A stretch of DNA of 53,475 nt from Pedosphaera sp. (GCA_009695275.1 SIBF01000004.1:1-53475), one strand, 5' to 3'; shown: positions 10,242 to 50,740, counted from the first letter of the stretch. The notes: a model not told the origin generated them from the sequence alone. A program made the numbers and translations.

Positions 10242-12575
10242 ATGACTCTTCACCTTGTGTCCTTTGTTCATGCTCTCGCATTTGTTCGAGGATGCCACAG
10301 ATTTCTAATTTGCCTGGCGCTTCTCAAAGGCGTTTGGGGAAATGCCGGAACCGAGACTGCAAAGCACTGGGCCTTTCAACCAATCGTGCGGCCGGCGCTC
10401 CCCGCCGGAAACAGCACCAACGCCATCGACCGGTTTGTCCTCGCAAGGTTATTGAAGAGCGGTGGTCCGGTTTTTTCAGAAGCCAACAGGCGAACGTTGG
10501 TCCGCCGCCTCAGCTTCAATCTGCGCGGTTTGCCTCCATCACCGGCGGAAGTGTCGGAGTTCCTCGCGGATGTGGCACAGGACGCGTACGAACGGTTGGT
10601 GGAACGTTTCCTCGCCTCTCCGCAATACGGCGAGCGGTGGGGACGGCACTGGCTGGACATTGTGGGTTACGCCGACTCGAATGGTTATTTCAACGCGGAC
10701 ACGGATCGACCTCTGGCTTGGAAGTATCGAGATTACGTCGTCCGCTCGATTGCCGCGGACAAACCGGTGAATCGTTTCATCACAGAGCAAATTGCAGGCG
10801 ACGAGTTGGCCGGTTACATCGCGGGAGGTGACGTGACTCCGGAGATGACAGAGGCCCTGATCGCAACGCATTTCTGGCGCAACGCACCTGACGGCAGCGG
10901 TGAGAGCGACGGGAATCCGCTTGAAGTCAAAGTGGATAATTACGCGGTGCTCGAAGGAAACGTCCATCTGCTCGGCTCGGCGTTCCTCGGGCTGACACTT
11001 CAATGCGCACGGTGCCACGATCACAAGTTCGAGCCGCTAACTCAGGACGATTATTACGCTCTGCAAGCGATCATTCGTCCAGTGTTCGACCCAAGCCGCT
11101 GGATCAAGCCAGACGAGCGCGTGATCGAAGCTGGCACCCGCGCCGCGCGCGATGGCAACCATAAACTCACGGCTGAAGTGGAGCGCGACCTCAAGACCTT
11201 GAACGCAAGCCTCGAGGGGTTGATCGGGCCATTCCGCAGACAAATGATCGAGGAAAACCTGGCGAAGTTCGTGGAGCCGTTTCGCAAAGATCTCTTGAAG
11301 GCGATCGACACGAAGGAAAAGGACCGCACCGAGTTGATGAAGTCGCTCCTGAAAACCAACGCGACGTTGGTTGATCTGAGTGAGGATACCGTGTTCAAGC
11401 GGTTTCCCACGGCAGCAACCGCGGCTCAACCGCTCAAGGTCGAGCTTCAATCCAGGCAGGCGGCGAAGCCGGTGCCGTTGGAACGTATCTCGGCAACGTT
11501 CGAGTCCACGAATTCACCTCCCGCGCATCATCTGCTCGTGCGAGGGAATCACGCGAGCGAAGGGAAGGAAGTGGCTCCGGGATTACCTCTGGCATTGCGC
11601 GGAACTGCTCTGCCTGGCGAAGGCCCGGCAAGCCTCGCGTCCACGATTTCTTCAGGACGCCGACTCTCACTGGCGCGGTGGCTGACATCAGCGGAAAATC
11701 CGGTTGTCGCCCGCGTGCTGGTGAATCGCGTGTGGCATTACCATTTCGGGCGGGGAATCGTGAGCACGATTGAGAATCTTGGGCAGGCCGGTGCAAAGCC
11801 GGCCAACCCCGGGCTGCTGGACTGGCTGGCGAGCGAGTTTGTCCGCTCAGGCTGGAGTTTGAAACATCTCCATCGGCTGATCGTGACGAGCGCCGCCTAT
11901 CGACAGGCGAGTCAGGAAACATCAGGCGAACGTGAGTCAAGCATTGCTGTACCCGGCACTGACTCGCTGAACACTCCACCTCTGAACTCTGTGTCGGCAG
12001 GACTGCGCCGCCTCGACGCTGAATCGCTCCGCGACGCAATGCTCGCTGTGACCGGGGAACTCGACTTGAAGCAAGGTGGACCATACGTGCCTACAAAAGT
12101 TGATGGCGAGGGTCAGATCATCATTGATGAAGCCCTGCCTGGCGCGCATCGGCGCTCCGTTTACCTCCAGCAGCGCCGGACGCATCCGGTGGACTTCCTG
12201 GCCACGTTCGACGGCCCGGCGCACAACCCGGTTTGTGTCCAGCGCGTTCCCTCGACCGTGGCTCAACAGTCACTATCGCTGCTGAATTCGGAATTCATCC
12301 GGACTCGTGCCAGGGCTTTCGCCAAACGCCTTCTGAGCGGCACGAGCACCGACTCGATCAAAGATGTTGCGCAGAGCGAGGAGCATAGCCTCATCGAAAA
12401 TGCCTTCGATATTGCCTACAACCGTCCGCCAGGCCAGGAAGAACTGGCAGCGGCGGAGAGCTTTCTTCGCGCCCAAGCAGCGGTTTATCCCGATCACAAA
12501 ACTCCCCGCGAGCAGGTTTGGTCCGACTTTTGCCAGATGCTGCTGGCGAGCAATGCATTCATGTATGTCGATTGA
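10242..12575 (+). CDS. PSCyt2/PSD1 (DUF1549/DUF1553) family protein
   Basis: Motifs CARCHDHKFEP and YGERWGRHWLDIVGYADSNGY. Co-linear with the 603..2879 protein. Its stop overlaps the downstream DUF1501 start. Confidence 0.85.
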   Translation: MTLHLVSFVHALAFVRGCHRFLICLALLKGVWGNAGTETAKHWAFQPIVRPALPAGNSTNAIDRFVLARLLKSGGPVFSEANRRTLVRRLSFNLRGLPPSPAEVSEFLADVAQDAYERLVERFLASPQYGERWGRHWLDIVGYADSNGYFNADTDRPLAWKYRDYVVRSIAADKPVNRFITEQIAGDELAGYIAGGDVTPEMTEALIATHFWRNAPDGSGESDGNPLEVKVDNYAVLEGNVHLLGSAFLGLTLQCARCHDHKFEPLTQDDYYALQAIIRPVFDPSRWIKPDERVIEAGTRAARDGNHKLTAEVERDLKTLNASLEGLIGPFRRQMIEENLAKFVEPFRKDLLKAIDTKEKDRTELMKSLLKTNATLVDLSEDTVFKRFPTAATAAQPLKVELQSRQAAKPVPLERISATFESTNSPPAHHLLVRGNHASEGKEVAPGLPLALRGTALPGEGPASLASTISSGRRLSLARWLTSAENPVVARVLVNRVWHYHFGRGIVSTIENLGQAGAKPANPGLLDWLASEFVRSGWSLKHLHRLIVTSAAYRQASQETSGERESSIAVPGTDSLNTPPLNSVSAGLRRLDAESLRDAMLAVTGELDLKQGGPYVPTKVDGEGQIIIDEALPGAHRRSVYLQQRRTHPVDFLATFDGPAHNPVCVQRVPSTVAQQSLSLLNSEFIRTRARAFAKRLLSGTSTDSIKDVAQSEEHSLIENAFDIAYNRPPGQEELAAAESFLRAQAAVYPDHKTPREQVWSDFCQMLLASNAFMYVD

Positions 12576-14019
12576 TTCTCCGTTTCACTGCAATCGCCGC
12601 GCGTTTCTCCGGGCGTCCGCTGGAGGACTCGGTTCACTGGCGCTGTCCCATCTGTTCTCGCTCGATTCGACGGGTCAATCGATCTCATCCCACGCGATGT
12701 CAGGAGCACTGGACGCAGCCCTGCCTTTGGCCCCGAAACCGCCGCATCATTGTCCGCGCGCGAAGGCGGTGATTTGCCTTTTCCAGCATGGCGGGCCGAG
12801 CCAGATGGATTTGTTCGACGTCAAGCCGGAGCTGAACAAGCGTGATGGGCAGGATCATCCGGGCGAGCTGGAAATACATTTCGACAAACAGGCTGGTAAG
12901 CTTCTCAAGTCGCCCTTCGGATTCCGGCGGGCGGGCCAGTGCGGGATGGAGTTGTCCGAGTTGCTGCCACACACGGCAGGAATCGCCGACGAGATCACCC
13001 TGGTGCGTTCGATGAAGACCGATTCAGTGGATCACGAATCAGCGCTGCGCATCATTCATAGCGGAAAATTTCAAGCAGGCCGGCCCACATGGGGATCGTG
13101 GGTTCTTTACGGCCTCGGAACCGAACGGCAGGATCTGCCTGCGTACGTGGTGTTGAGCGATCCAGGCGGGCTGCCGGTGGATGGATTGAAGAACTGGACT
13201 TCCGGCTGGCTGCCGGCGGCTTACCAGGGAACTCAACTTCGCAGCGAAGGAACGCCGGTTTTCAACCTCGCTCCGCCGTCCGATGTGCCTGCCGAGGCTC
13301 GCGCCAATCAGCTCCGGTTGTTGGATTCATTGAATCATTCTCATGCCGGCTCCCATCCTGGAAATTCCGAGCTGACCGCACGCATCCGCAATTTCGAGAT
13401 CGCCGCTCGAATGCAGAGCGCCGTGACAGACGTGATGGATCTGTCGAAGGAGCCCGGGCACGTGAAACGTCTTTACGGCATGGATCACGCGAACAAGGCC
13501 ACGGCCAACTACGCCAGGCGTTGTCTGATGGCGCGACGGTTGGTGGAGCAAGGCGTCCGGTTTGTCCAAGTTTATCTGAGCGGTCAGCCGTGGGACACGC
13601 ACGACAAGAACGCCGAGAAACTGCGCGGTTTGTGTGAAATGACCGACCAGCCCAGCGCAGCCCTCGTGCTCGATCTGAAGCAACGCGGCCTGCTGGAAGA
13701 TACGATCGTGCTTTGGACCGGCGAATTTGGGCGGTTGCCCGTCTCACAAGGCAAGGATGGCCGCGATCATAATCGCCACGGCTTTTCATTGTGGCTCGCT
13801 GGCGGTGGCTTCAAGAAGGGCTACATCCATGGTGCCACCGATGACTTCGGATACCGCTCTGTGCAGGATGTGGTTCGTGTTTATGACCTCCACGCCACAC
13901 TTCTGCATGCACTGGGATTGGATCATCGCAAGTTGACCTGCCCGCACGAGGGACGGGACGACAGCCTGACAGACACGGTCGTGACGAACGCCGAAATTGT
14001 GAATCAACTGCTCGTGTGA
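12565..14019 (+). CDS. DUF1501 (sulfatase-like, Tat-exported) protein
   Basis: Twin-arginine leader MSIDSPFHCNRRAFLRASAGGLGSLALS, then CLFQHGGPSQMDLFDVKPEL and the DUF1501 C-terminal block DHNRHGFSLWLAGGGFK. Start chosen at the Met just before the Tat motif. Confidence 0.85.
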   Translation: MSIDSPFHCNRRAFLRASAGGLGSLALSHLFSLDSTGQSISSHAMSGALDAALPLAPKPPHHCPRAKAVICLFQHGGPSQMDLFDVKPELNKRDGQDHPGELEIHFDKQAGKLLKSPFGFRRAGQCGMELSELLPHTAGIADEITLVRSMKTDSVDHESALRIIHSGKFQAGRPTWGSWVLYGLGTERQDLPAYVVLSDPGGLPVDGLKNWTSGWLPAAYQGTQLRSEGTPVFNLAPPSDVPAEARANQLRLLDSLNHSHAGSHPGNSELTARIRNFEIAARMQSAVTDVMDLSKEPGHVKRLYGMDHANKATANYARRCLMARRLVEQGVRFVQVYLSGQPWDTHDKNAEKLRGLCEMTDQPSAALVLDLKQRGLLEDTIVLWTGEFGRLPVSQGKDGRDHNRHGFSLWLAGGGFKKGYIHGATDDFGYRSVQDVVRVYDLHATLLHALGLDHRKLTCPHEGRDDSLTDTVVTNAEIVNQLLV

Positions 14020-39738: not shown

Positions 39739-42480
39739 TCAATTCACAAACACGAATTCATTGCTGTTGAACAGGAGCCGGCACAGGTTGGCCAGTCCAT
39801 GTTGCTTTGCGTAGGCCGACAATTCGCGCGCTTCATCGGCATCCGGTAAACGCCCCCAGGTCCACTCGCAAGCTTCGTTGATGCTATGTTCCAGACCGGT
39901 TGCCCCACGGTCGAGCTGCGAGGCAAAGTGTTCGGCATAGCGGACCGTGAAGGCACTGTTCCAAAGCGCGAGCGCTTGTTGCACAGTCACGGAGTTGTTG
40001 CGCACCGGGGCGAGTTGATCACCCGCCGGGCAGTCGAGCGCGTCCATCATCGGATCCGGCAAGGTGCGGAAAAGGAAACGATACACGCTGCGCCGGCGGG
40101 CCATGTCGCTATCCACGTCGAACTTTGTGTAATCGACTTTTGGCGTGACATGAATGCCTGGCTGCAGATCGAATTGCTGATCGCTCGGCCCACCCATGCG
40201 CAGCTCCAGCCGGCCGGACATGAGCAGAATGGCGTCACGCACCTCCTCGGCATCGAGCCGTGTGCGGTTCATGCGCGAGAGGTAGCGGTTGTCGGGATCA
40301 GTCGTGTCCAGTTTTCCAGCCGCCTGCCGGTAACTCGCGCTGGTAACGATCAATCGATGAAGCTTCTTCAACGAGCCCCCGGCGTCGTCACGGAACCAGA
40401 CTGCCAGCCAGTCCAACAACTCGGGATGAGTGGGTGCCGATCCCATGCGTCCGAAATCGTTGACTGTCTCGACAATTCCGCGCCCGAAATGAAGGTGCCA
40501 GATGCGATTGACGATGGAGCGCCACACAAATGGATTCTCGGGATGCGTGAGCCAGCGAGCCAGGGCCGCACGGCGGGGACCTTCGACCTTCGCATCAGCG
40601 ATTGCGAATTGACTCGGCAGCGCGCGCGCACAGGAGAGAGTGCCTGGAGATGCGAGTTCGAGAGGCTTCGTGATTTCGCCGCGCCGCAGCATTCGCACTT
40701 CTCGTGGAGCACCGGCAGGCTTGTGACTGGCGTCCGGGGGGAAATCACTCGCTCCGGCAAAGACCAGCGCAGGCTTTGGAAGCCGGGAGAGGTCGCGCGT
40801 GATCCGTTCGCGTGCGACGAACGTGGCGAGCTGCAAGCGCTGCTCTTCGGTGCGTTCGCGTGGGGCGATCTTCACGAGCTTGTCGATCGTCTCGGGAACG
40901 ATTCTTACGGGCACTGGCGCATCAGTGATTGCCAGCCGCAGGCGTCCGATCAGATGCCCTGCGCCATGAAGTTGTTTCAGCGTGATGACAAGCTTCGAGC
41001 CGTCCGGCACGGACGCGGCTTGAGCAAGTTCGAAAACAGCCTGGTGCGACTCACCTTCACGCGGATGAACTCCCCACGCGGTCTTCTCGTCGCTGTCCAG
41101 CGCGTGACGGATCGTCCATCCGTCCTGATCGAAATCCGAACTGGCGTTGGTGAGGGAGAGCACGCGCGGAACTTCCGCCCCGCGCTCAAACAGGAACGCC
41201 TGAAATTCGCTGAGGTGCAGGTTGCCATTTTCATTCCTGCCCGGCCCGCTCTTTGGCAGGCGCTCATCCGCCAGTAATTCGAGACGAATTGCCGTCAGTT
41301 TTGGCAGGCCAACGCTCGTGGTGATCGTGTAGGTGTCCCGCTCCGGACGCGTGCCACTGGCGAACAACGACGCGTCCGATTGCCGCTTCAACGTGGTCCC
41401 GTTGGCCGAGAGGAACGTCTCCGGTTCCAGGACTTGCCATGCCGGCGGGTGGTGCTGTTGTTCCTCCCAGTCGGCGACGTCGCGCGCCGCCGCATCACTC
41501 AACAGAAGCGCGCGGTCACCCTGAGCGGCGCGCTTCAAGAACTCCTGCAACTCGCGCCTGCGCTGGTGAACCGTCTGATCGGGATCGTAAAAGCGATTAG
41601 CCTTGTCGGTGCCGGCGAACACGGCTTGGAGCGCGTAATAATCCCGCTGCGGGATTGGATCAAACTTGTGATCGTGGCAGCGGGCGCATTGAACAGTCGT
41701 GCTGGTGAACGTCTGCATCACCGTCGTCACGATGTCATCCCGATCAATATAGCGGGCACTCTGGCGATCCAGGGTATCTTCGCGAATGTCACGCAACGAA
41801 CTTTCATCCCACGGGCCTGAGGCCAGCAGTCCCATCGCCACGATCCCTTGCGGGTCTTCAGGGAACAGCACATCCCCCGCGACCTGCTCCTGCACGAAGC
41901 GTGGGTAGGGTTTGTCCGCGTTGAACGCGCTGATCAGGTAATCGCGGTAAGGCCACGCGTTCGTGCGGATGCGATCCTGATCATGGCCGTGGGTCTCGGC
42001 GAAATGAACCGCATCCATCCAGAGCCGCGCCCAGCGTTCGCCAAAGCGCGGGCTTTCGAGCAGGCGGTCCACCAGCCGCTCGTAAGCGTTCGTTGAGGTG
42101 TCGTTGAGAAACGTGCTGATTTCTCCCGGCGAGGGTGGAAGACCCGTGAGGTCAAAAGAGACGCGGCGAATGAGTGTCCTCCCATCCGCTTCGCCTGCCG
42201 GCTTGAACCCCTTTTGGTCCAGCCTGGCCAGGATGAACTCATCAACCGGATTGCGTGCGGGGTTTCCCCCGGAACTTGCGAAAGAATGATTTTGAACCGC
42301 TGGTCTGACCAGCGGGCGAATGGCCCACCACTCATTGGTTTCAGTCGCACCGAGCCTTACCGCCAGCGAAAGGACGAGCCCGCAAAGAACCGGACTCCGT
42401 CGTTTGCGAATCACATGGCAAAGAAGCAAGCCAAGACCGTTCAACAACGAACGGAAGTTCAACCTGGCTGTCTGGGTCAT
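39739..42480 (-). CDS. PSCyt2/PSD1 (DUF1549/DUF1553) family protein, long form
   Basis: Motifs CARCHDHKFDP and YGERWARLWMDAVHFAETHG, with an extra middle domain of ~200 aa relative to the other two copies. Start placed at MTQTARL before the hydrophobic segment. Confidence 0.85.
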   Translation of the reverse strand: MTQTARLNFRSLLNGLGLLLCHVIRKRRSPVLCGLVLSLAVRLGATETNEWWAIRPLVRPAVQNHSFASSGGNPARNPVDEFILARLDQKGFKPAGEADGRTLIRRVSFDLTGLPPSPGEISTFLNDTSTNAYERLVDRLLESPRFGERWARLWMDAVHFAETHGHDQDRIRTNAWPYRDYLISAFNADKPYPRFVQEQVAGDVLFPEDPQGIVAMGLLASGPWDESSLRDIREDTLDRQSARYIDRDDIVTTVMQTFTSTTVQCARCHDHKFDPIPQRDYYALQAVFAGTDKANRFYDPDQTVHQRRRELQEFLKRAAQGDRALLLSDAAARDVADWEEQQHHPPAWQVLEPETFLSANGTTLKRQSDASLFASGTRPERDTYTITTSVGLPKLTAIRLELLADERLPKSGPGRNENGNLHLSEFQAFLFERGAEVPRVLSLTNASSDFDQDGWTIRHALDSDEKTAWGVHPREGESHQAVFELAQAASVPDGSKLVITLKQLHGAGHLIGRLRLAITDAPVPVRIVPETIDKLVKIAPRERTEEQRLQLATFVARERITRDLSRLPKPALVFAGASDFPPDASHKPAGAPREVRMLRRGEITKPLELASPGTLSCARALPSQFAIADAKVEGPRRAALARWLTHPENPFVWRSIVNRIWHLHFGRGIVETVNDFGRMGSAPTHPELLDWLAVWFRDDAGGSLKKLHRLIVTSASYRQAAGKLDTTDPDNRYLSRMNRTRLDAEEVRDAILLMSGRLELRMGGPSDQQFDLQPGIHVTPKVDYTKFDVDSDMARRRSVYRFLFRTLPDPMMDALDCPAGDQLAPVRNNSVTVQQALALWNSAFTVRYAEHFASQLDRGATGLEHSINEACEWTWGRLPDADEARELSAYAKQHGLANLCRLLFNSNEFVFVN

Positions 42481-42628
42481 GGTCGGGAGAATAGTCGCCA
42501 CACTTCCGCACGCAAGCACAGGCAATAGTCCTCGGCGACGGTCGAATGCTGCGGAGAACTCAATTTCTGATTGGTTCAGTTTAGAATTCCGCTTGCCAGA
42601 CACGCGTCCGGTGCCTACCAGAGACGGC

Positions 42629-44014
42629 ATGAACCGCCGTAAATTCCTCAAGCAAAGCTCCACCGTAATCGCCGCCGCTGCCGTCGCTTCCTATGTTCCC
42701 ACCACTTTCGCCGCCGGGAAGTCGATCCGCGTCGGCCTCATCGGCACGGGCTGGTACGGCAAGAGCAGTTTGCTTCGCGCCATTCAGGTAGCGCCGATCG
42801 AAGTCGTTTCGTTGTGCGACGTGGATAGCAAGATGGCTGGTGCCGCCGCCGACCTGGTGGCCACCCGCCAGCTTTCCAAGAAGAAGCCGCGCATCTACTC
42901 GGACTTCCGCAAAGCAATCGCCGAGAAGGATGTGGACATCATGATGGTCTCGACGCCAGACCACTGGCATGCCATTCCGGCCATCACCGCGATGCAGGCA
43001 GGGTTCGACGTGTATTGTGAGAAGCCGACCGGCGTGGATGTGGTTGAGAGCCAGTCGATGGTGGCCGCCGCACGGAAGTACAACCGCGTGATGCAGGTCA
43101 ACACTCAGCGCCGCAGCACGCCGCACCTGATCGAGGCAAAGGAGGAGATCATCAAGGCCGGTCTGCTCGGCAAAGTGCAGAAGGTCGAGATCGGGGTCTG
43201 GTGGCACATGCGCAACAACATGCCCGTTTCGGAGGCCCCGGACATCGCGCCACCGGAAGGATTCGATTACGAGATGTGGACCGGTCCGGCGCCAAAGCAG
43301 CCCTTCAACAAGATCATTCACTCGCGCGGCTGGCGGGCCTACATGGAATACGGCAACGGCATCGTCGGCGACATGTGTGTTCACATGTACGACATGACCC
43401 GCTGGTTGCTCGACCTCGGCTGGCCGAAGAGCATCACATCCTGGGGCGGCATCCTCAACGACCGCAATTCGCGCGCAAACATCACCGACACGCAGACGGC
43501 GATCTACCAGCACGACGACTTCGACGTGACGTGGAACCATCGCACCTGGGGCAAGTCGCCCGAGCCCGACCCTGACTTTCAATGGTTCGGCACGATCTAT
43601 GGCGAAAAAGGCGTCCTCAAGTGCAGCGTGTTCCGCTACGACTGGATTCCATATTCGTCCGGCAAGGTCGAGCGCACGCGCAAGGCGTTGTTCGAATACG
43701 ACAAGCACCCCGAGGACAAGGCGGAGGAGAAGGAATGGAATCTCGAAGGCCACGTGGCCTCCGCGATGCGCCGGCATTGGCTGAATTATCTCAACGCGAG
43801 AGAGAACCGCGGCAAGATTCTGCCCGTCGCCGACATCGAGCAGGCGCACATCTCCAGCTCGTCGTGCTTCCTGGCCAACCTTTCGCAGAAGCTGGGCCGC
43901 ACGCTCGAGTTCGATCCCGCCACGCATACGGTGAAAGGCGATGCCGAGGCGAACCGGCTGCTGGCCCGGCCTTACCGCACACCTTGGGTCCACCCGACCC
44001 CGGACAAAGTCTGA
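42629..44014 (+). CDS. Gfo/Idh/MocA family oxidoreductase, Tat-exported
   Basis: Tat leader MNRRKFLKQSSTVIAAAAV and Rossmann GLIGTGWYG. A CEKP motif. Confidence 0.85.
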   Translation: MNRRKFLKQSSTVIAAAAVASYVPTTFAAGKSIRVGLIGTGWYGKSSLLRAIQVAPIEVVSLCDVDSKMAGAAADLVATRQLSKKKPRIYSDFRKAIAEKDVDIMMVSTPDHWHAIPAITAMQAGFDVYCEKPTGVDVVESQSMVAAARKYNRVMQVNTQRRSTPHLIEAKEEIIKAGLLGKVQKVEIGVWWHMRNNMPVSEAPDIAPPEGFDYEMWTGPAPKQPFNKIIHSRGWRAYMEYGNGIVGDMCVHMYDMTRWLLDLGWPKSITSWGGILNDRNSRANITDTQTAIYQHDDFDVTWNHRTWGKSPEPDPDFQWFGTIYGEKGVLKCSVFRYDWIPYSSGKVERTRKALFEYDKHPEDKAEEKEWNLEGHVASAMRRHWLNYLNARENRGKILPVADIEQAHISSSSCFLANLSQKLGRTLEFDPATHTVKGDAEANRLLARPYRTPWVHPTPDKV

Positions 44015-44219: not shown

Positions 44220-45362
44220 TTACGGTTTAGTCGCTGAATTGCTGAAGCGGGGATTCCAAAATCGGCGTTCTATGAACCGGTGAAACAAACTGCCAAGCAG
44301 GATCGTTACGCCCACGCAGCAAGGAATCCGTAGTAGCAGAATCCCCATCGGGGTGTCGGCACCAGACGAATCAAAGGCATGCCCCACGAGCCGCACCACC
44401 GGCCAATGCACCAGATAAAGGCTGTAGCACATTAGTCCCAGAAAACGCAGTGGAGATAGAATCTGAAGGTTATACGCGGTGCCGTCCCATCGCTTCAGTC
44501 CGAGGATCAGCAGGGCGTAGGAAAATGCCGCCAGGTACGCTTGATTGAGTGGAAGCCGGAGTTGTCGCAAGTCTGGCACTGCCCACAGGATGCCGACCAC
44601 AAGCGGGAGACAAAACCAACCCCATCTTCGCAAGGGGACGTAATTCGAAACGTAATAGACCAGAACTCCCGAAGCGAACATCAGCCATTGACCATCGAGA
44701 AACAGGCCCTCCGTGCGCAACGTTCGCAGTGGAAACAGAACCAGGACGGTTACGATCAGCGTCACCAAACTCAGTGCATGAAAGAAAAATCGGCGCGTGA
44801 CGACCAACGCCAAACCTACCAGGAAATAGAACTGCTCTTCGAAACACAGCGTCCACGAAGGCGGCAGCAGGGGGTTTTCAGAGCCGCCAGTCAGATGCCA
44901 TCGCCAGGTTTCGGTCAGACTCAAATTCCCAAGCCACTGCCATCTCTTCAGTGATTGTGGCGGCGGGACGCCAAGAGCTTCAAAATAGCTCGCAGGAAGA
45001 AACCCCTCAGACAGCCATGCGAACAAGGCTGTCATAGCAAGCGCAGCCCAGAATGGCGGGTAAATCCGCCGGAAGCGTCGCCAGAAGAAAAACTTTGCCG
45101 CGCCAGGTTCCGATCGTAATAGGTCCGCCGATGCCGTGACGCAGTAGCCGCTGATCACAAAGAAGAGTGGAACTCCAATCCAGCACTTTCCCAGGATCGC
45201 AAAGATGCCAGCAGTCACGCCGCTGGTCTCCTGGAGCGGACTTCGCGCGGAATGATAAACGACGACGAGAAGGCAAGCAAAGCCCCGCCACAACGTCAGT
45301 GAGTCATAGCGAACTCGTGAGTGTGTTTCTCCGGCATTCTGCCTTTGGTCTTCCAGCTGCAA
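44220..45362 (-). CDS. acyltransferase family 3 (OafA-like) membrane O-acyltransferase
   Basis: N-terminal YDSLTLWRGFACLLVVVYH, the acyltransferase-3 signature, and about 10 TM helices. Confidence 0.8.
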   Translation of the reverse strand: MQLEDQRQNAGETHSRVRYDSLTLWRGFACLLVVVYHSARSPLQETSGVTAGIFAILGKCWIGVPLFFVISGYCVTASADLLRSEPGAAKFFFWRRFRRIYPPFWAALAMTALFAWLSEGFLPASYFEALGVPPPQSLKRWQWLGNLSLTETWRWHLTGGSENPLLPPSWTLCFEEQFYFLVGLALVVTRRFFFHALSLVTLIVTVLVLFPLRTLRTEGLFLDGQWLMFASGVLVYYVSNYVPLRRWGWFCLPLVVGILWAVPDLRQLRLPLNQAYLAAFSYALLILGLKRWDGTAYNLQILSPLRFLGLMCYSLYLVHWPVVRLVGHAFDSSGADTPMGILLLRIPCCVGVTILLGSLFHRFIERRFWNPRFSNSATKP

Positions 45363-45454
45363 ATCGTTTCACTCCACACACCGTGCGATAATCGGGCGAA
45401 AAGCCTTGCCAGCGGGGCCGTTTCTGACGCTCAACAGTGCCCGGTGAGAGAAAC

Positions 45455-48400
45455 TCACGCCAGGAGTGCTTTGGCCTTTGCCAACGCCTCGTCCAGCTTG
45501 CCCGGATCCTTGCCGCCACCGCGTGCGTTGTCGGGTTTGCCGCCGCCTTTGCCACCGACGATGGGGGCGATCTGCTGGATGATCTTTCCGGCCTGCACCT
45601 TCGCGGTGAAGTCCGGTGAGACGGAGGCGACCAGTGAGACGGCGTTGTTCGCTGCCCCACCGAGGACGATAACACCCTTGAACCGGCTCTTAAGCGCATC
45701 CACCACGGCTTGGAGATAATCCGCGTCGCCATCGGGGAAACCCTGCGTGATGAGCGGGATGCCGTTGACCGTCTCCGACCGGGTGAGCAACCAGGCCGCG
45801 GTCTGCGCCGCGTTTCGGGCGATGGACGTCTTGAGCGCCTTCTCCGACTCCTTCTGCTGCGCGAGCAGGCTCTCGACTTTCTTCTCCAACTCGGCGACGG
45901 GGGAATTCAACTTTCCCGCGACGGTGCGAAGGAGGTGAAGTTGCTGGTTCGCGAGTTCGTAAGCGGTGAGGCCGGCAACGGCTTCGATACGGCGCACGCC
46001 GGCAGCAATGGCGTTCTCGCTCACGATGCGGAACAGGCCAATCTCGCCTGTCGCACGGGTGTGGGTGCCGCCGCAGAGTTCCATTGAGTAACCATCCAGT
46101 TTGTTCGCCGCGCCGCCGATCTGGACGACGCGTACGGTGTCGCCGTATTTGTCGCCGAAGAATTGCATCACGTCCTTGCGCGATTTCACGTCGGCGTAGG
46201 GGACTTCGGTCCACGAGACGCCGGTGTTTTCAAGAATGCGTTCGTTGACGAGTTTCTCGATGTCGGCAACCTGCGCGGGTGTAAGCGGCGCGCTGTTGAA
46301 GTCGAAAGTCAGCTTGTCCGGGCCGACGAATGAACCTTTTTGCGACGCTTCCTGGCTTACGACTTCGTGCAGCGCCCAGTGGAGCAAGTGCGTGACGGTG
46401 TGGTGACGTTGGATGGCACTGCGGCGTTCGTGATCGACGGTGAGAAGGACTTCCGAACCGACAATTGGCAGCGCGTCGCCAGACGCGCTGGGAGCGCGAC
46501 CGTCCCGGTCGCCCTGCTGCGCGTCTCGCGCAGCAGATCGGTGGGGGTGGAAAACGAGAAACGTTGAGGAACTCGCGGCACCCTCGCGCGGGGAATCGGT
46601 CGGCGAGACGCCGACCGATGCGACCGGGACGGTCGCGCTCCCCTCTTCGATGAAATGGAGCCAGGTGTTGCCGGATTTTTGCGTGTTGGTGATGCGCCAG
46701 AGCTGGCCGCCGCCATTCAATTCGCCGGTGTCACCGACCTGGCCGCCCATCTCGGCGTAGCAGGCGGAAGCATCGAGGATGACAGCGGTCTTGTCCTTGA
46801 GCGAGACGACCTCCAGGACTTTGGCTTGGACGGCGAGGTGCTCGAAGCCGACGAACTTCGTGGGTGTCGTGGTCTCGATTTTCGAAAGTGAAATGACTTC
46901 CTTCTTCTGCGCGGCACGGGCGCGGGCGCGCTGCTCTTTCATCAGCTCTTCAAAGCCCTCCACGTCCACCGTCAGGCCACGTTCGCGCGCCATCAACTCG
47001 GTGAGGTCGAGCGGGAAGCCCTGCTCGTCATAAAGCCGGAACGCGAACGCACCTGAGATTTGGGCAGGGATGGCTTGGGGAGCGCGCCCGCCCCGGGCGC
47101 TGTTTCCCGCGCCCTCGCGGGAAACGGTCGGGCGTGGGACGTCACCGGACGCCGAGATTTCATTGTGCGTTCCCGAGCCGCCCGGGGCGGGCGCGCTCCC
47201 TGGCGCATCGGGAGTCCACAGCCAGCGATAATTCTCCGACGAGGGAACCACGGCGTTGTCCCAGGGATTGCGGCAGATGTAATGAAACTTCTCTTCCAAG
47301 TCCGAGTCGCCTCGCATCAGGCGGTCAAAAAAATCTTCCTCCCAAATATGAACTCCAGAGACCTTGGCCGCTTTGTTGATCTTGTGTGCGGTCGTGGACT
47401 TGATTCCGTGGAGGATTTCTCCGAGCGGATAAAAGACCGGTTTGCCGTCTTTGTCTTGCTCCTTGATTTGGGGTTCGAACAGCAGGTGAACATGGTCGGG
47501 CATCACGCGCGCGGCAAAAAGTTGATACTGCCGATGGGTGTGAGCATAGAGAACGCTCTCCAGCACGATGTCGCGCTCGGCCGGAGTGAGTTGCCGTTTC
47601 TCTCGCGTGGAGAAGGTCACCATGTATTTGCCCCAGGGTCGTTCGAAATGCGGCAGGCGTCTTTTGGAATAGGTAGCACCGGGGTTGTCGGACGCTCTGG
47701 GGCCGACCGCGAGGGCGCGGTCGGCTGCGCCCGGGGCGGGCGCGCTCCCCATCACCAATGGAAGCGGCGATCCCGCAGTCATGTGTGTCTTGTTTCCAAG
47801 TGTAATTCGAGCGGGACCACCCTGAATCAGACTCGCTTCCTCGTTGAAGAGCGCGATACCTTTGTCGAGCGTCTTGTTAAACGCCTCCTCCTCACGCTGG
47901 ATGACCTCCTGCACATGGGCTTTCCGGGCGCGAATTTCAGGGAAGACATCGCCCATTGTGTCGGCGAGCACGTCCACGAGCTTGTAGAAGAACGGTTGGT
48001 GGAAGCCGAGCGTGCGGCCGTAGCGCACGGCGCGGCGCAGGATGCGGCGGAGGACGTAGTTGCGGTCGGTGTTGCCGGGTTGGATGCCGTCGGCAATCGC
48101 AAACGAGAGCGTGCGGATGTGATCGGCAATAACCCGGAAGGCGATATCGAGCGCGATTTGCTCCGCACCATGGGCAGCGCGACCGTCCCGGTCGCTCTGT
48201 TGCGCGTCTCGCGCAACAGCCCCGGGGGTGTGGGAAGCGAGAGATGTTGAGGAACTCGCGGCACCCTCGCGCGCGGAATCGGTCGGCGGGACGCCGACCG
48301 ATGCGACCGGGACGGTCGCGCTCCCCGTCGCTTCGCGACGTAGCTTTTCCTCGGTCGCAGCGTCGGGTGTCCAGAGCCATCGATAGTTTTCCGTGGATGG

Positions 48401-49867
48401 CGCGACGCCGGAATCCCACGGGTTGCGGCAGATGTAGTGGAACTTCTCTTCGAGATCGGCGTCGCCACGAATCATGCGGTCGAACGATTCGTTCTCCCAC
48501 ACTTGGCCCGTGGTGTTTTCCGCCTTGTTGATCTCGTGGGCGGTGAACGATTTGATTGAGTGCATCAACTCGGACAGCGGCCAGAACACGGGCTTGCCTT
48601 CCTTGTCCTCCTCTTTGATCTGCGGCTCGAACAGGAAATGAACGTGATCGGGCATGACGCAGGCGGCATACATCTGATAGCGGCGCTGATCGTGTCCGAA
48701 AAGGAGGCTCTTGAGCACGATGTCCTGCGCTTGCGGCGAAAGCTGACGACGCTCGCGCGTTGTGAAACTAACCATGTATTTCGCCCACGGATGCTCGAAG
48801 TGCGGAAGGCGGCGCTTGTAGTAGGTAGCTTGAGGAGCGCGACCGTCACGGTCGCTCTGCTGCGCGTCCCGCGCGGCAGATCCGGGAGCGTGGGAAGCAG
48901 ATGATGCCGTTGGACTCGTCGCGCGCGTGGGATCGGGCGGCGGGACGCCGACCGGGGCGACCGGGACGGTCGCGCTCCCCGCTCCCTGCGGGAGTGTGCT
49001 GCCATAGCGTTTTCCACTCATTGCTTCCAGCGCGTCGAAGATCGGCCGAAAGATGTCGGTTTCATAGTTGGAGATTCTGGCGTTGGCGAAATCGGTCAGA
49101 CCCTTTGTGCCCTGCATGATGCTCGTGACGCGCTCGAAGCCCATGCCCGTATCCACGTGCTGGGCAGGCAACGGGGAGAATGTGCCGTCCGGGTTCGCGT
49201 TGAACTGGATGAAGACCAGGTTCCAGATCTCGATGCAGCGGGCGTCGCCTTTGTTGACAAGTGAACCCTTGGTGTCGCCAGCGGGCGTCAAATCAACGTG
49301 CAGTTCGGAGCAGGGACCGCATGGCCCGGTCTCACCCATCATCCAGAAGTTGTCTTTCTTGTTGCCGTTGACAATGTGGGCGGCGGGATCGAGGCCGACG
49401 CTGCGGAACTTTTCGGCCCAGAAGTTCCATGCTTCCTCGTCGCGCTCGGCAGGATCACCAATGGATTTGTCCGGATTGTAAATCGTGGCATAGAGCCGTT
49501 GGGGCGGAAATTTCCAGACACCGATAACCAATTCCCACGCCCACTCAATAGCCTCTTTCTTGAAGTAATCGCCGAAGGACCAGTTGCCGAGCATTTCGAA
49601 GAACGTGTGGTGGTAGGTATCAAGGCCGACGTCGTCGAGGTCGTTGTGCTTGCCGCCGGCGCGGATGCACTTCTGGGTGTCGGCGGCGCGGCCGGGTGTG
49701 TAGGGGCACCTGGTCTGGCCGAGGAAGATGGGCACGAACTGGTTCATGCCGGCGTTCGTGAACAGGAGGTTCGGCGAATCGGGCATTAGCGAGGACGATG
49801 GGACGATGGAGTGCTGCTTCGACTTGAAGAAGTCGAGAAACGACTGGCGGATTTGCGAACTCGTCAT
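45455..49867 (-). CDS. alaS: alanine–tRNA ligase (AlaS) carrying three in-frame mobile-element-derived insertions (1471 aa)
   Basis: N-terminus [50 protein letters not shown], tRNA-recognition block [37 protein letters not shown], editing-site [31 protein letters not shown], and C-Ala tail [16 protein letters not shown] are all collinear with AlaS. The roughly 600 extra residues map to three discrete stop-free inserts listed as separate features. Confidence 0.85.
   Translation of the reverse strand: [1470 protein letters not shown]
46484..46645. repeat. solo REP-like palindrome inserted in frame in alaS (~53 codons) just upstream of the editing-domain HxxxH region
   Basis: GGAGCGCGACCGTCCCGGTCGC…CTGCGCG-TCTC-GCGCAG…CGGTCGGCG-AGAC-GCCGACCG…GCGACCGGGACGGTCGCGCTCC. 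Translated as [54 protein letters not shown], between …WLHFIE and [17 protein letters not shown]. Confidence 0.8.
47075..47749 (-). mobile_element. second REP–RAYT–REP module in frame in alaS, 225 codons, ~70% identical RAYT core, variant REP termini
   Basis: Core [26 protein letters not shown]…[13 protein letters not shown]…[16 protein letters not shown]…YRWLWTPDA. Flanks GGGAGCGCGCCCGCCCCGGGCG… are GC-variant relatives of the first REP. The right flank is a 129-bp perfect palindrome encoding GSAPAPGG…RGGRAPQ. The insert lies in the helical tRNA-binding domain between …EEASLIQG and [13 protein letters not shown]. Confidence 0.8.
48173..48979 (-). mobile_element. REP–RAYT–REP module (IS200/IS605-like Y1/HuH transposase, TnpA_REP type) inserted in frame in alaS, 269 codons
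   Basis: Flanked by two ~160-bp palindromic REPs with GGAGCGCGACCGTCCCGGTCGC…GCGACCGGGACGGTCGCGCTCC termini, translated as GSATVPV…RDGRAPQ. The core is [26 protein letters not shown]…[13 protein letters not shown] (HuH) …[15 protein letters not shown] (catalytic Tyr) …YRWLWTPDA. It has no stop codon of its own and reads in the alaS frame. The insert sits between the aminoacylation and tRNA-recognition domains. Confidence 0.8.
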
Positions 49868-50077
49868 TCGTTGAAATGTTAAATCGTTAAATTGTGAACC
49901 GTAAAATCTTTGCCGCGAAAGAACGCAGAGAACACAAAGAATTCTTCCGCAACAAGGCGGGGAAACTAGCCGAAACCGTCCACGAGAGGCGAGTGGAAGT
50001 TTTGGCCCTTTTGGAGGTTCCACTGAAGAGGCAAGCGTGCCCGGCAGCCTTTTCCGACAAAACAGCCGGAAGAGTAT

Positions 50078-50740
50078 TCAGGGCATGAAACGGGGGGGAG
50101 GTGCTTTCACGAACGTCGTCGCGCGGAGATAGATGGGTTCAAGCAGCTCTCCTGGCAGGAAGTTGCTTCGCGTAACCGCGAGCTGACCGATGGCAGATGC
50201 GGCTGGCTCAACGTCGTGTGCTGATTGGAATTTTGCGGATAACCCCGGTCCGAAAAGACCACATTGATCACCGAGCAGAGAGTCGAGTTGTTCACGAGAC
50301 TTGAGGTTCATGGCTTCGATAATCGCGATGGTATTCGGGAAAATGTTCAACAAGGTCACGTAGAATTCACCTCGCTGCGCATCAATGGCGATTCGCACTT
50401 TGTCCCGGAGGCCTCTTTGCTGGAGTTGAAATGCGATGGCGTCAGCGCTGCCAACGCCTTGGAGTTTCAGACCTGTCGCCAGTTGCCAGCCCTGGGCGAT
50501 GGAGATGGCTGCCCGGATGCCGGTGTAGGAACCAGGTCCGAGTCCAACCACGATCTCACTTATCTCGCCGCGTTTGAGCCCGGCAACTCCAAGCGCGTTT
50601 TGTATCAACGCCAGCGGACGCACATTGCGATCCCCGGCATCGGCGGCTTCTCCCAGGATCTTCGCGGCACTGTCGCCATTGGCGGAAAGGATCGCCGCGC
50701 TCCGGATATTTCCTGAGAATTCGAGCGCCAATGTGATCAT
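50078..50740 (-). CDS. tsaB: tRNA threonylcarbamoyladenosine biosynthesis protein TsaB (YeaZ)
   Basis: MITLALEFSGNIRSAAIL…VVGLGPGSYTGIRAAISIAQG. Start chosen at MITLAL, 4-bp overlap with tsaE. Confidence 0.8.
   Translation of the reverse strand: MITLALEFSGNIRSAAILSANGDSAAKILGEAADAGDRNVRPLALIQNALGVAGLKRGEISEIVVGLGPGSYTGIRAAISIAQGWQLATGLKLQGVGSADAIAFQLQQRGLRDKVRIAIDAQRGEFYVTLLNIFPNTIAIIEAMNLKSREQLDSLLGDQCGLFGPGLSAKFQSAHDVEPAASAIGQLAVTRSNFLPGELLEPIYLRATTFVKAPPPRFMP

Follow-up and report, generated by a model that had tools for sequence, protein, structure and literature searches.

The alaS gene in a stretch of Pedosphaera sp. DNA (GCA_009695275.1, SIBF01000004.1:1-53475) raises the question of how an indispensable gene, encoding alanyl-tRNA synthetase (AlaS, also AlaRS), can hold two transposase domains and remain a single reading frame. 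To our knowledge, mobile elements in bacterial genes are thought to survive there only by removing themselves, as introns and inteins do, or by killing the gene. The whole stretch of 53,475 nucleotides is referred to here as the window, and alaS lies on its minus strand (45455..49867). The answer favored here, with a probability of roughly 70%, is that the gene holds two in-frame REPtrons, each consisting of a REP-associated tyrosine transposase (RAYT) and its repetitive extragenic palindromes (REPs), as well as one solo REP doublet, at three permissive and hypervariable loop or linker positions, and that these start-less and stop-less modules are read through and expressed by hitch-hiking on their host.

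When read from an upstream GTG at position 50023, the open reading frame (ORF) is a single one of 1522 residues (45455..50023, minus strand), and when read from the ATG at 49867 it is an uninterrupted alaS frame of 1470 codons plus a stop. The ATG is the likely start, because the GTG extension is not shared by homologs, which have the N-terminus MTSxQIRQSF in common with the product read from the ATG. The 51 open codons between the GTG and the ATG (49868-50023) are not conserved in homologs. In an hmmscan against Pfam and NCBIfam, the product matches the AlaS model TIGR00344 in four collinear stretches (811 bits, cut-off 457) as well as PF01411, PF07973 (tRNA_SAD) and PF02272 (DHHA1), and the full AlaS layout is present: class II catalytic core, tRNA-recognition region, editing domain with its HxxxH motif, tRNA_SAD and C-terminal DHHA1. 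Without the inserts, the core has 898 residues and is 80-83% identical to normal-size AlaS over 100% of its length. A preliminary description of this DNA had claimed one continuous frame with collinear AlaS blocks and about 600 extra codons at three positions; the frame, the collinearity and the three sites are borne out, and the extra codons of the three inserts come to about 575.

Insert 1 (residues 296-565) lies between the class II aminoacylation domain (segment A; residues 1-295; 48983..49867), which ends in the conserved K-R/K-Y-G-S-T-L-P ahead of the site, and segment B (residues 566-684; 47816..48172), which connects sites 1 and 2 and comprises the helical tRNA-recognition region. It is composed of a REP doublet of the type designated T1 (48831..48982), a first RAYT (RAYT 1; residues 347-503; 48359..48829) and another T1 doublet (residues 514-565; 48173..48328), which is a direct repeat of the first. 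The two repeats start 660 nt, or 220 codons, apart (48171-48258 versus 48831-48918), and a third copy is found in insert 3 (46488-46575). Insert 2 (residues ~685-931), which separates segment B from segment C (residues 932-1075; 46643..47074), begins with 22 extra codons, the GGPARITLGNKTHMTAGSPLPLVM region (residues 685-706; 47750..47815), followed by a REP of type T2 (47678..47749), a second RAYT (RAYT 2; residues 731-888; 47204..47677) and further T2 REPs (residues 889-931; 47075..47203) with arms at 47078-47099 and 47179-47200. The left T2 REP and the right end of the module form a 45-nt inverted repeat that is 89% complementary, in which 47076-47120 pairs with 47707-47751. Segment C ends in ...WLHFIE at site 3, where insert 3, a solo T1 doublet of 54 codons without a RAYT (residues 1076-1129; 46481..46642), precedes segment D with the editing domain, tRNA_SAD and DHHA1 (residues 1130-1470 plus the stop; 45455..46480). 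Site 3 is unfilled in two related loci, L001 and L003.

All three insertion points are loop or linker positions. In an alignment to solved AlaRS structures, which the preliminary description had proposed for locating them, site 1 maps between human AlaRS residues ~297 and 304, site 2 between residues ~415 and 426, and site 3 directly upstream of the part that aligns to the editing domain of A. fulgidus AlaRS, from residue 575. At the left edge of site 2, the GGPARITLGNKTHMTAGSPLPLVM residues follow the conserved FNEE...LIQ and precede the T2 REP tag, and they are missing from P0001, from other site-2 alleles and from the closest homologs. Over RAYT 2, the T2 REPs and segment B, the opposite strand contains an ORF of 396 codons (47060-48250, plus strand), which probably stays open by chance, given the GC-rich DNA.

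The two large inserts encode RAYT domains, as had been proposed: two stretches of the alaS product match NF047646 (REP_Tyr_transpos; 136.5 bits, cut-off 80), and PF01797 (Y1_Tnp) reaches 50 bits against a cut-off of 23. The residue ranges first given for them, 399-556 and 783-940, do cover the domains but were numbered from the upstream GTG; counted from the ATG, they are the ranges given above. The HxH motif lies in PDHVHFLFE in RAYT 1 and in PDHVHLLFE in RAYT 2, the catalytic tyrosine lies in FHYICRNPW in both, and the HUH and tyrosine (HYxCxNPW) motifs are at least 95% conserved among 130 embedded RAYT copies. The two domains are 71% identical as proteins, and no further RAYT was found by tblastn within the window. 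With only 32.9 bits, NF033573 (transpos_IS200) stays under its cut-off of 55, and the modules in alaS come with no tnpB and with none of the start and stop codons of autonomous IS200/IS605 elements. Both RAYTs are thus embedded in the alaS frame without a start or stop of their own, in line with the preliminary description and unlike stand-alone, single-copy RAYT genes. Close relatives (225-290 residues) likewise read through their REPs, and only distant ones of ~165 residues resemble classical stand-alone RAYTs.

Structure prediction agrees with this assignment. An AlphaFold2 model of the RAYT alone has a predicted local distance difference test (pLDDT) score of 89.9, and its top Foldseek match is 4ER8_A (TM-score 0.68/0.65, E = 1e-6), the structure of TnpA_REP on a REP hairpin, followed by the TnpA proteins of ISDra2, IS608 and IS200. 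In a profile search, 4ER8 is again the top match (E = 3.8e-7), and the HUH and tyrosine motifs align; a plain sequence search of RAYT 1 against the PDB gave no match, and a profile was required. In a model of residues 1-700, the RAYT core has pLDDT values of 85-96 and the AlaS helical segment after the insert is well predicted, while the REP-encoded linkers have values of ~22-25 and are predicted to be disordered as protein.

The palindromes that flank the RAYTs are translated together with them, as the preliminary description had it, with the amendment that each T1 REP is an inverted doublet and that the modules use REPs of two types. Each T1 doublet is ~150 nt long and REPIN-like, with 40-nt arms that are 85% complementary. 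The left one of insert 1, translated as GSATVPVAP...DRDGRAPQ, contains the tag GGGGAGC, the hairpin GCGACCG-TCC-CGGTCGC and an inverted partner; the left T2 REP of insert 2, translated as GSAPAPGAADRALAVG, contains the same tag and the hairpin GCGCCCG-CCC-CGGGCGC. The window contains 8 and 7 copies of the two REP cores, where about 0 would be expected. Among related genes, six RAYT/REP types (T1-T6) can be distinguished, in which the RAYT type and the flanking palindrome co-vary (98% nearest-neighbor agreement), and inserts 1 and 2 use unlike cognate REPs. The 5' tag GGGGAGC is invariant in all types (124 occurrences) and directly adjoins a 7-bp stem whose sequence is type-specific (GCGACCG in T1, GCGCCCG in T2, GCACGCG or ACACGCG in others) and whose loop measures 3-4 nt. 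Folded as single-stranded DNA, the solo T1 doublet reaches -68 kcal/mol (z = -9.2; the z-scores of the REPs are -9.2, -5.9 and -3.9), and each arm forms an unpaired tag and two hairpins. Reading the three insertion junctions revealed no convincing motif in common, whether as a DNA target or as a target-site duplication, apart from the tag of the element itself. At homolog loci on contigs of 17 kb, 222 kb and 2.3 Mb, the same palindromes flank the RAYTs, and one intergenic T1 doublet was seen. In 514 kb of flanking DNA from related genomes there are a further 8 REP clusters, about one every 64 kb, in spacers that look non-coding, and an additional cognate copy is present within 19 of 80 host ORFs.

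The ratio of nonsynonymous to synonymous substitution rates (dN/dS), estimated by the Nei-Gojobori method against three homologs, is 0.07-0.09 for the RAYTs (0.07 for RAYT 2) and 0.08-0.18 for the AlaS segments (0.08-0.17 for segment A), with similar dS values of about 1. The RAYTs are therefore under strong purifying selection, as strong as that on the AlaS catalytic core. The REP linkers have dN/dS values of 0.4-1.5 and dS values of merely 0.2-0.68, and with dS depressed in this way, they are conserved as DNA and not as peptide. The preliminary description had argued for selection and against pseudogenization. This part holds, but the stop-free REP peptides on which it also relied are weak evidence, since 4-5 of the 6 frames of a REP doublet lack stops anyway. 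It is the frame match and the purifying selection of the RAYTs that provide the main argument for in-frame maintenance, and the purifying selection on all AlaS segments argues for a functional AlaS.

These data also bear on the explanation that the locus is an artefact or a dead gene, with repeats having caused a chimeric misassembly or with alaS decaying as a pseudogene while another copy backs it up. The region is indeed repeat-rich, and a second alaS could lie outside the window. However, all AlaS segments are free of stops and frameshifts in addition to being under purifying selection, and the two modules are not collapsible repeats, because they are 71% identical as proteins and have different REPs. 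The same architecture is found in more than 100 independent assemblies (JGI, ENA, NCBI), including contigs of 0.2-4 Mb, so that misassembly or a one-off event was rejected, and the explanation as a whole is most improbable.

When the full product was used as the query, the 120 best homologs were proteins of 1084-1408 residues from Verrucomicrobiota metagenomes and metagenome-assembled genomes (MAGs), and all of them (120/120) contained a RAYT, located by segment-wise BLAST at site 1 in 57, at site 2 in 55, at both in 8 and at sites 2 and 3 in 1. Many of them have a precomputed Y1_Tnp domain and the JGI name 'alanyl-tRNA synthetase/REP element-mobilizing transposase RayT', and more than 130 embedded RAYTs are found in related Verrucomicrobiota alaS genes. 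This list is biased toward RAYT carriers, because the query itself holds two RAYTs. A second set was obtained with a query from which the inserts had been deleted in silico (898 residues), and among the 120 closest AlaS cores (77-83% identical), 13 (~11%) carry a RAYT and 107 do not. All three sites are empty in 28 of these 120, and a filler occupies sites 1, 2 and 3 in 62, 72 and 15 of them, respectively. The idea of an ancient fusion that is fixed throughout the clade is thereby rejected, as most close AlaS proteins have no RAYT.

The sites are not reserved for RAYTs, as some are filled by other palindromes, by tandem repeats or by a conserved segment that is not palindromic. Site 1 of P0027, P0035, P0013, P0009 and P0025 contains perfect or near-perfect tandem peptide repeats such as HGRPVDA and SPNVGxP, and many alleles with a RAYT at site 2 share the conserved non-palindromic site-1 filler PLKTSGEAPSNIIEV. 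Where site 1 carries a RAYT (P0005, P0015, P0017, P0024, P0040 and P0053), site 2 often holds 60-140 unique, helix-like, non-palindromic residues that are lineage-specific.

The modules are replaced between closely related alleles. AlaS segments A, B and C of P0109 and P0024 are 98%, 99% and 98% identical, and yet site 1 holds a T4 module in one and a T1 module in the other, with RAYTs that are only 57% identical. The pairs P0097/P0017, P0080/P0109 and P0101/P0007 follow the same pattern, and of P0001 and P0019 one has a site-1 module that is missing from the other. Alleles that are 98-99% identical around site 1 thus hold different module types, which points to cassette-like turnover. In part the modules descend with alaS, and in part they are replaced. 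These conclusions draw on nearest-neighbor, pairwise and Mantel tests, which were used in place of a neighbor-joining tree of the AlaS cores that was star-like and uninformative. Two ancient, site-bound RAYT lineages were also considered and are ruled out by the six types, of which T2, T4, T5 and T6 are each found at more than one site.

A search of related genomes for other in-frame REP/RAYT insertions had been proposed, and many were found, in alaS as well as in other housekeeping genes. HMMER searches with RAYT 1 over 1.8 billion representative proteins returned 5237 relatives, and many of the closest ones lie inside long proteins. After removal of AlaS fragments, the hosts among the representatives include RecG (several), PriA, ValRS, PurH, shikimate kinase (AroK), BirA, Ham1, a glycyl-radical enzyme and DNA methylases. 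When a single genome per species was scanned, 519 RAYT loci were confirmed, of which the best 80 are nearly all located in MAGs of Verrucomicrobiota (Limisphaerales, Chthoniobacterales and others). The ORFs around these best 80 encode AlaS (~55), ThrRS (9; L014, L016, L019, L021, L028, L033, L050, L077, L082), MetH (~10; including L043, L047, L048, L052, L059, L064, L069, L079), RecG (3; L065, L081, L083) and CarB (1; L070). Single MAGs hold nested RAYTs in two host genes, and most insertions fall between domains according to the Pfam coordinates of the host proteins.

Three MetH frames stop shortly after the nested RAYT (L071, 713-2350; L074, 4786-6525; L080, 5464-6546), and in L071 an overlapping downstream ORF begins in the REP; such truncated frames may reflect a split gene, a frameshift or faulty assembly. 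Contigs labeled Gemmataceae, Bifidobacterium, Acidobacteriota, Acidoferrum or Nitrospirota contain Verrucomicrobia-like AlaS or MetH genes with nested RAYTs (L009, L025, L026, L041, L046, L071), which is probably due to mis-binning rather than transfer. Phages were considered as vectors and rejected, as only 8 distant relatives (26-32% identity) occur on viral contigs.

The host of the alaS described here is a Verrucomicrobiota chromosome close to Limisphaerales MAGs. Elsewhere in the window, DUF1549/DUF1553 proteins, a signature of the Planctomycetes-Verrucomicrobia-Chlamydiae (PVC) superphylum, are encoded at 603-2939, 10242-14019 and 39739-42663, one of them followed by a DUF1501 protein, and genes for TsaB-like and TsaE-like proteins come after alaS.

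The distribution of the modules also bears on the explanation that they are domesticated, in other words that the RAYTs have been recruited for a host role, either nucleic-acid-binding or regulatory within AlaRS or at the level of the cell through REP and RAYT, and are kept for the benefit of the host. The low dN/dS of the RAYTs, which equals that of the AlaS catalytic core, would be expected of such a role, and the similar dS of RAYT and AlaS in orthologous pairs indicates long co-residence. There is also a weak but significant co-divergence of RAYT and AlaS within module types, and the prevailing view of RAYTs in the literature is that of domesticated transposases with vertical inheritance. 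On the other hand, a RAYT is present in only about a ninth of the closest alaS relatives, more than a fifth of which have all sites empty, near-identical alleles hold different module types at one site, and the same modules inhabit a dozen unrelated host enzymes. This combination of polymorphism, turnover and many hosts fits a function centered on the element rather than on AlaRS, and domestication is thus considered unlikely.

Another explanation holds that the modules are removed before the enzyme functions, at the level of DNA (by Y1 chemistry on single strands, in part of the population), RNA or protein, and that the working AlaRS is of normal size. IS200/IS605-type Y1 transposases excise precisely from single-stranded DNA, the flanking direct REP doublets with their multiple-of-three spacing could mediate in-frame loss, and empty and solo-doublet alleles do exist. 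Nevertheless, removal requires neither a frame match nor freedom from stops, yet more than 130 copies and many host genes show both; excision from DNA, in turn, would lose the element and not maintain it. An intron, ribozyme or intein is not supported, because an Rfam scan that covered both strands of 45000-50300 turned up no match at E <= 1, including no group I or II intron and no IStron, a Pfam scan of the alaS product found no Hint or intein family, and the insert junctions (...PQGA|GSATV... and ...GRAAH|GAEQ...) are not intein-like and do not have the Cys/Ser...His-Asn-Cys/Ser/Thr signature. With no Hint domain or splice-junction residues, the inserts presumably stay in the mature protein. 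Of the three hypotheses of the preliminary description, excision before expression is therefore disfavored and appears less probable still than domestication, and the other two, inserts tolerated as surface loops and a selfish element hitch-hiking on an indispensable gene, fit the data best.

Several observations weigh against two read-through REPtrons in alaS, or limit how far this reading can be taken. Translation as one polypeptide and activity of the 1470-residue enzyme are deduced from frame maintenance and selection, and the 53 kb window leaves room for a second, uninterrupted alaS elsewhere in the genome. The strong purifying selection on the RAYTs would fit a domesticated role of benefit to the host just as well. 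In the AlphaFold2 model of residues 1-700, some of the AlaS catalytic domain is of low confidence, because the alignment is shallow, and the model therefore says little about whether the inserts disturb the AlaRS fold. The correlation of RAYT and AlaS distances within types is weak (Mantel rho 0.33, p = 0.002, and 0.16, p = 0.028), and either transposition or allelic recombination may be the cause of turnover. Finally, no copy of the REP cores was found outside alaS within the window, and REPs outside host genes are sparse in the ~0.5 Mb examined, which makes the substrate population of the RAYTs uncertain.

If the reading of two in-frame REPtrons and a solo doublet is correct, the following mechanism can be proposed. 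Each module is a RAYT between its own cognate REP hairpins, without start or stop codon and with a length that is a multiple of three. The ribosome would read through the inserts and produce an AlaRS of 1470 residues, from which two independently folded HUH domains would hang on disordered tethers, rich in Gly, Ser, Ala and Pro and encoded by the REPs. In this way, the transposase would be made through the transcription and translation of an indispensable host gene, and the module would be shielded from deletion, because imprecise loss destroys alaS. The RAYT would retain catalytic function and, like TnpA_REP and the TnpA of IS200/IS605, would presumably cleave and rejoin single-stranded REP DNA at the GGGGAGC tag beside the type-specific 7-bp hairpin; this activity, the mechanism of transposition and the selfish rationale are inferred. 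The modules themselves behave like mobile or replaceable cassettes and not like ancient fixed fusions, and recombination between direct-repeat doublets with a spacing that is a multiple of three may leave behind an in-frame solo doublet such as insert 3.

The modules may moreover represent a distinct kind of element, for which the term 'ORF-transparent' HUH transposon would be fitting. In such an element, the whole unit including its hairpin ends would be one phase-preserving coding sequence, expressed only in frame inside a host gene and persisting in permissive linkers of essential multi-domain enzymes, where it would compete for a few hot-spot sites with cassette-like replacement and occupy an intein-like niche without protein splicing. 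This classification is somewhat favored, although it is held with less assurance than the presence of two in-frame REPtrons itself.

Should the modules be translated, they would represent a third way for mobile elements to survive in bacterial genes, in which a whole DNA transposon, including its recognition hairpins, becomes a harmless in-phase coding insert that borrows promoter, ribosome-binding site and indispensability from its host gene. This would account both for the expression of a start-less transposase and for the difficulty of losing it. Essential enzymes with domain insertions of 150-270 residues, such as AlaRS, ThrRS, MetH, RecG and others, would form a natural catalogue of permissive linkers, and the turnover between near-identical alleles offers a handle for testing selfish versus domesticated RAYT/REP systems. 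At present, such proteins are annotated as bifunctional enzymes or thrown out as fusion errors; in one survey, 'unexpectedly long proteins' were dropped as fusions or errors (Quentin et al., PMC6006769). The preliminary description held a transposase nested in this way to be undescribed, and no published account of RAYTs nested in host ORFs was found in a literature coverage that is incomplete, which is absence of evidence only.

Among known systems, the IS200/IS605 elements and IStrons share with the modules a Y1 HUH transposase edged by subterminal hairpins and single-strand DNA chemistry, and IStrons also neutralize their insertion into genes. Unlike them, the modules have no translation signal of their own, no tnpB and no ribozyme, and neutrality would be achieved by an open, in-phase coding insert and not by RNA splicing. 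Inteins are likewise selfish in-frame coding elements in essential conserved genes without their own start or stop; they are polymorphic in close relatives, recur at the same sites, and have overlapping hosts (helicases, synthetases, glycyl-radical enzymes). The modules differ from inteins in having no Hint domain or splice-junction residues, in encoding an HUH/Y1 single-strand enzyme, and in occupying permissive linkers rather than conserved active-site motifs.

The likeness to the in-frame Rickettsia palindromic elements, reportedly described by Ogata in 2000 and 2002, had been pointed out in the preliminary description and is apt. In-frame REPs in housekeeping genes, with tRNA synthetases among the hosts, have already been reported, most of them in Opitutus terrae and R. 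conorii (Di Nocera 2013, PMC3733652), and REPs that sit in frame inside tnpA_REP genes are known as well. These systems have in common in-frame palindromes at tolerated positions of housekeeping proteins, including tRNA synthetases and repair helicases; intragenic REPs are frequent in the verrucomicrobium O. terrae, and the solo doublet at site 3 is exactly such an insertion. In contrast, the intragenic REPs and Rickettsia elements comprise 20-80 residues of palindrome only, whereas the inserts described here include a transposase (157 residues plus linkers, about 230-270 residues per module) under strong purifying selection.

The closest relatives of the modules are the REPtrons or RAYT-REPIN systems, which are said to go back to work by Nunvar in 2010 and by Bertels and Rainey in 2011. 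In these systems, TnpA_REP is flanked by REPs (Messing 2012, PMC3479197; Quentin 2018, PMC6006769; Ton-Hoang 2012, PMC3333891). Both have an HUH/Y1 enzyme with HxH and a tyrosine in YxxxNP, for which 4ER8 is the best fold and profile match, inverted cognate palindromes with an invariant 5' tag and a hairpin, REPs arranged as inverted doublets, co-variation of RAYT type and REP type, and sparse extragenic REP copies. They differ in that the RAYTs of alaS do not stand alone and are instead start-less, stop-less and in frame within an essential host ORF, that two RAYT/REP types share one gene, and that the tag is GGGGAGC where the classical one is GTAG or CGTC. Classical RAYTs are furthermore single-copy and stably vertical, whereas those described here are polymorphic and replaced between near-identical host alleles. 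The nested modules are best described as a variant within the RAYT/REP kind, one that fills an intein-like niche but does so with no splicing.

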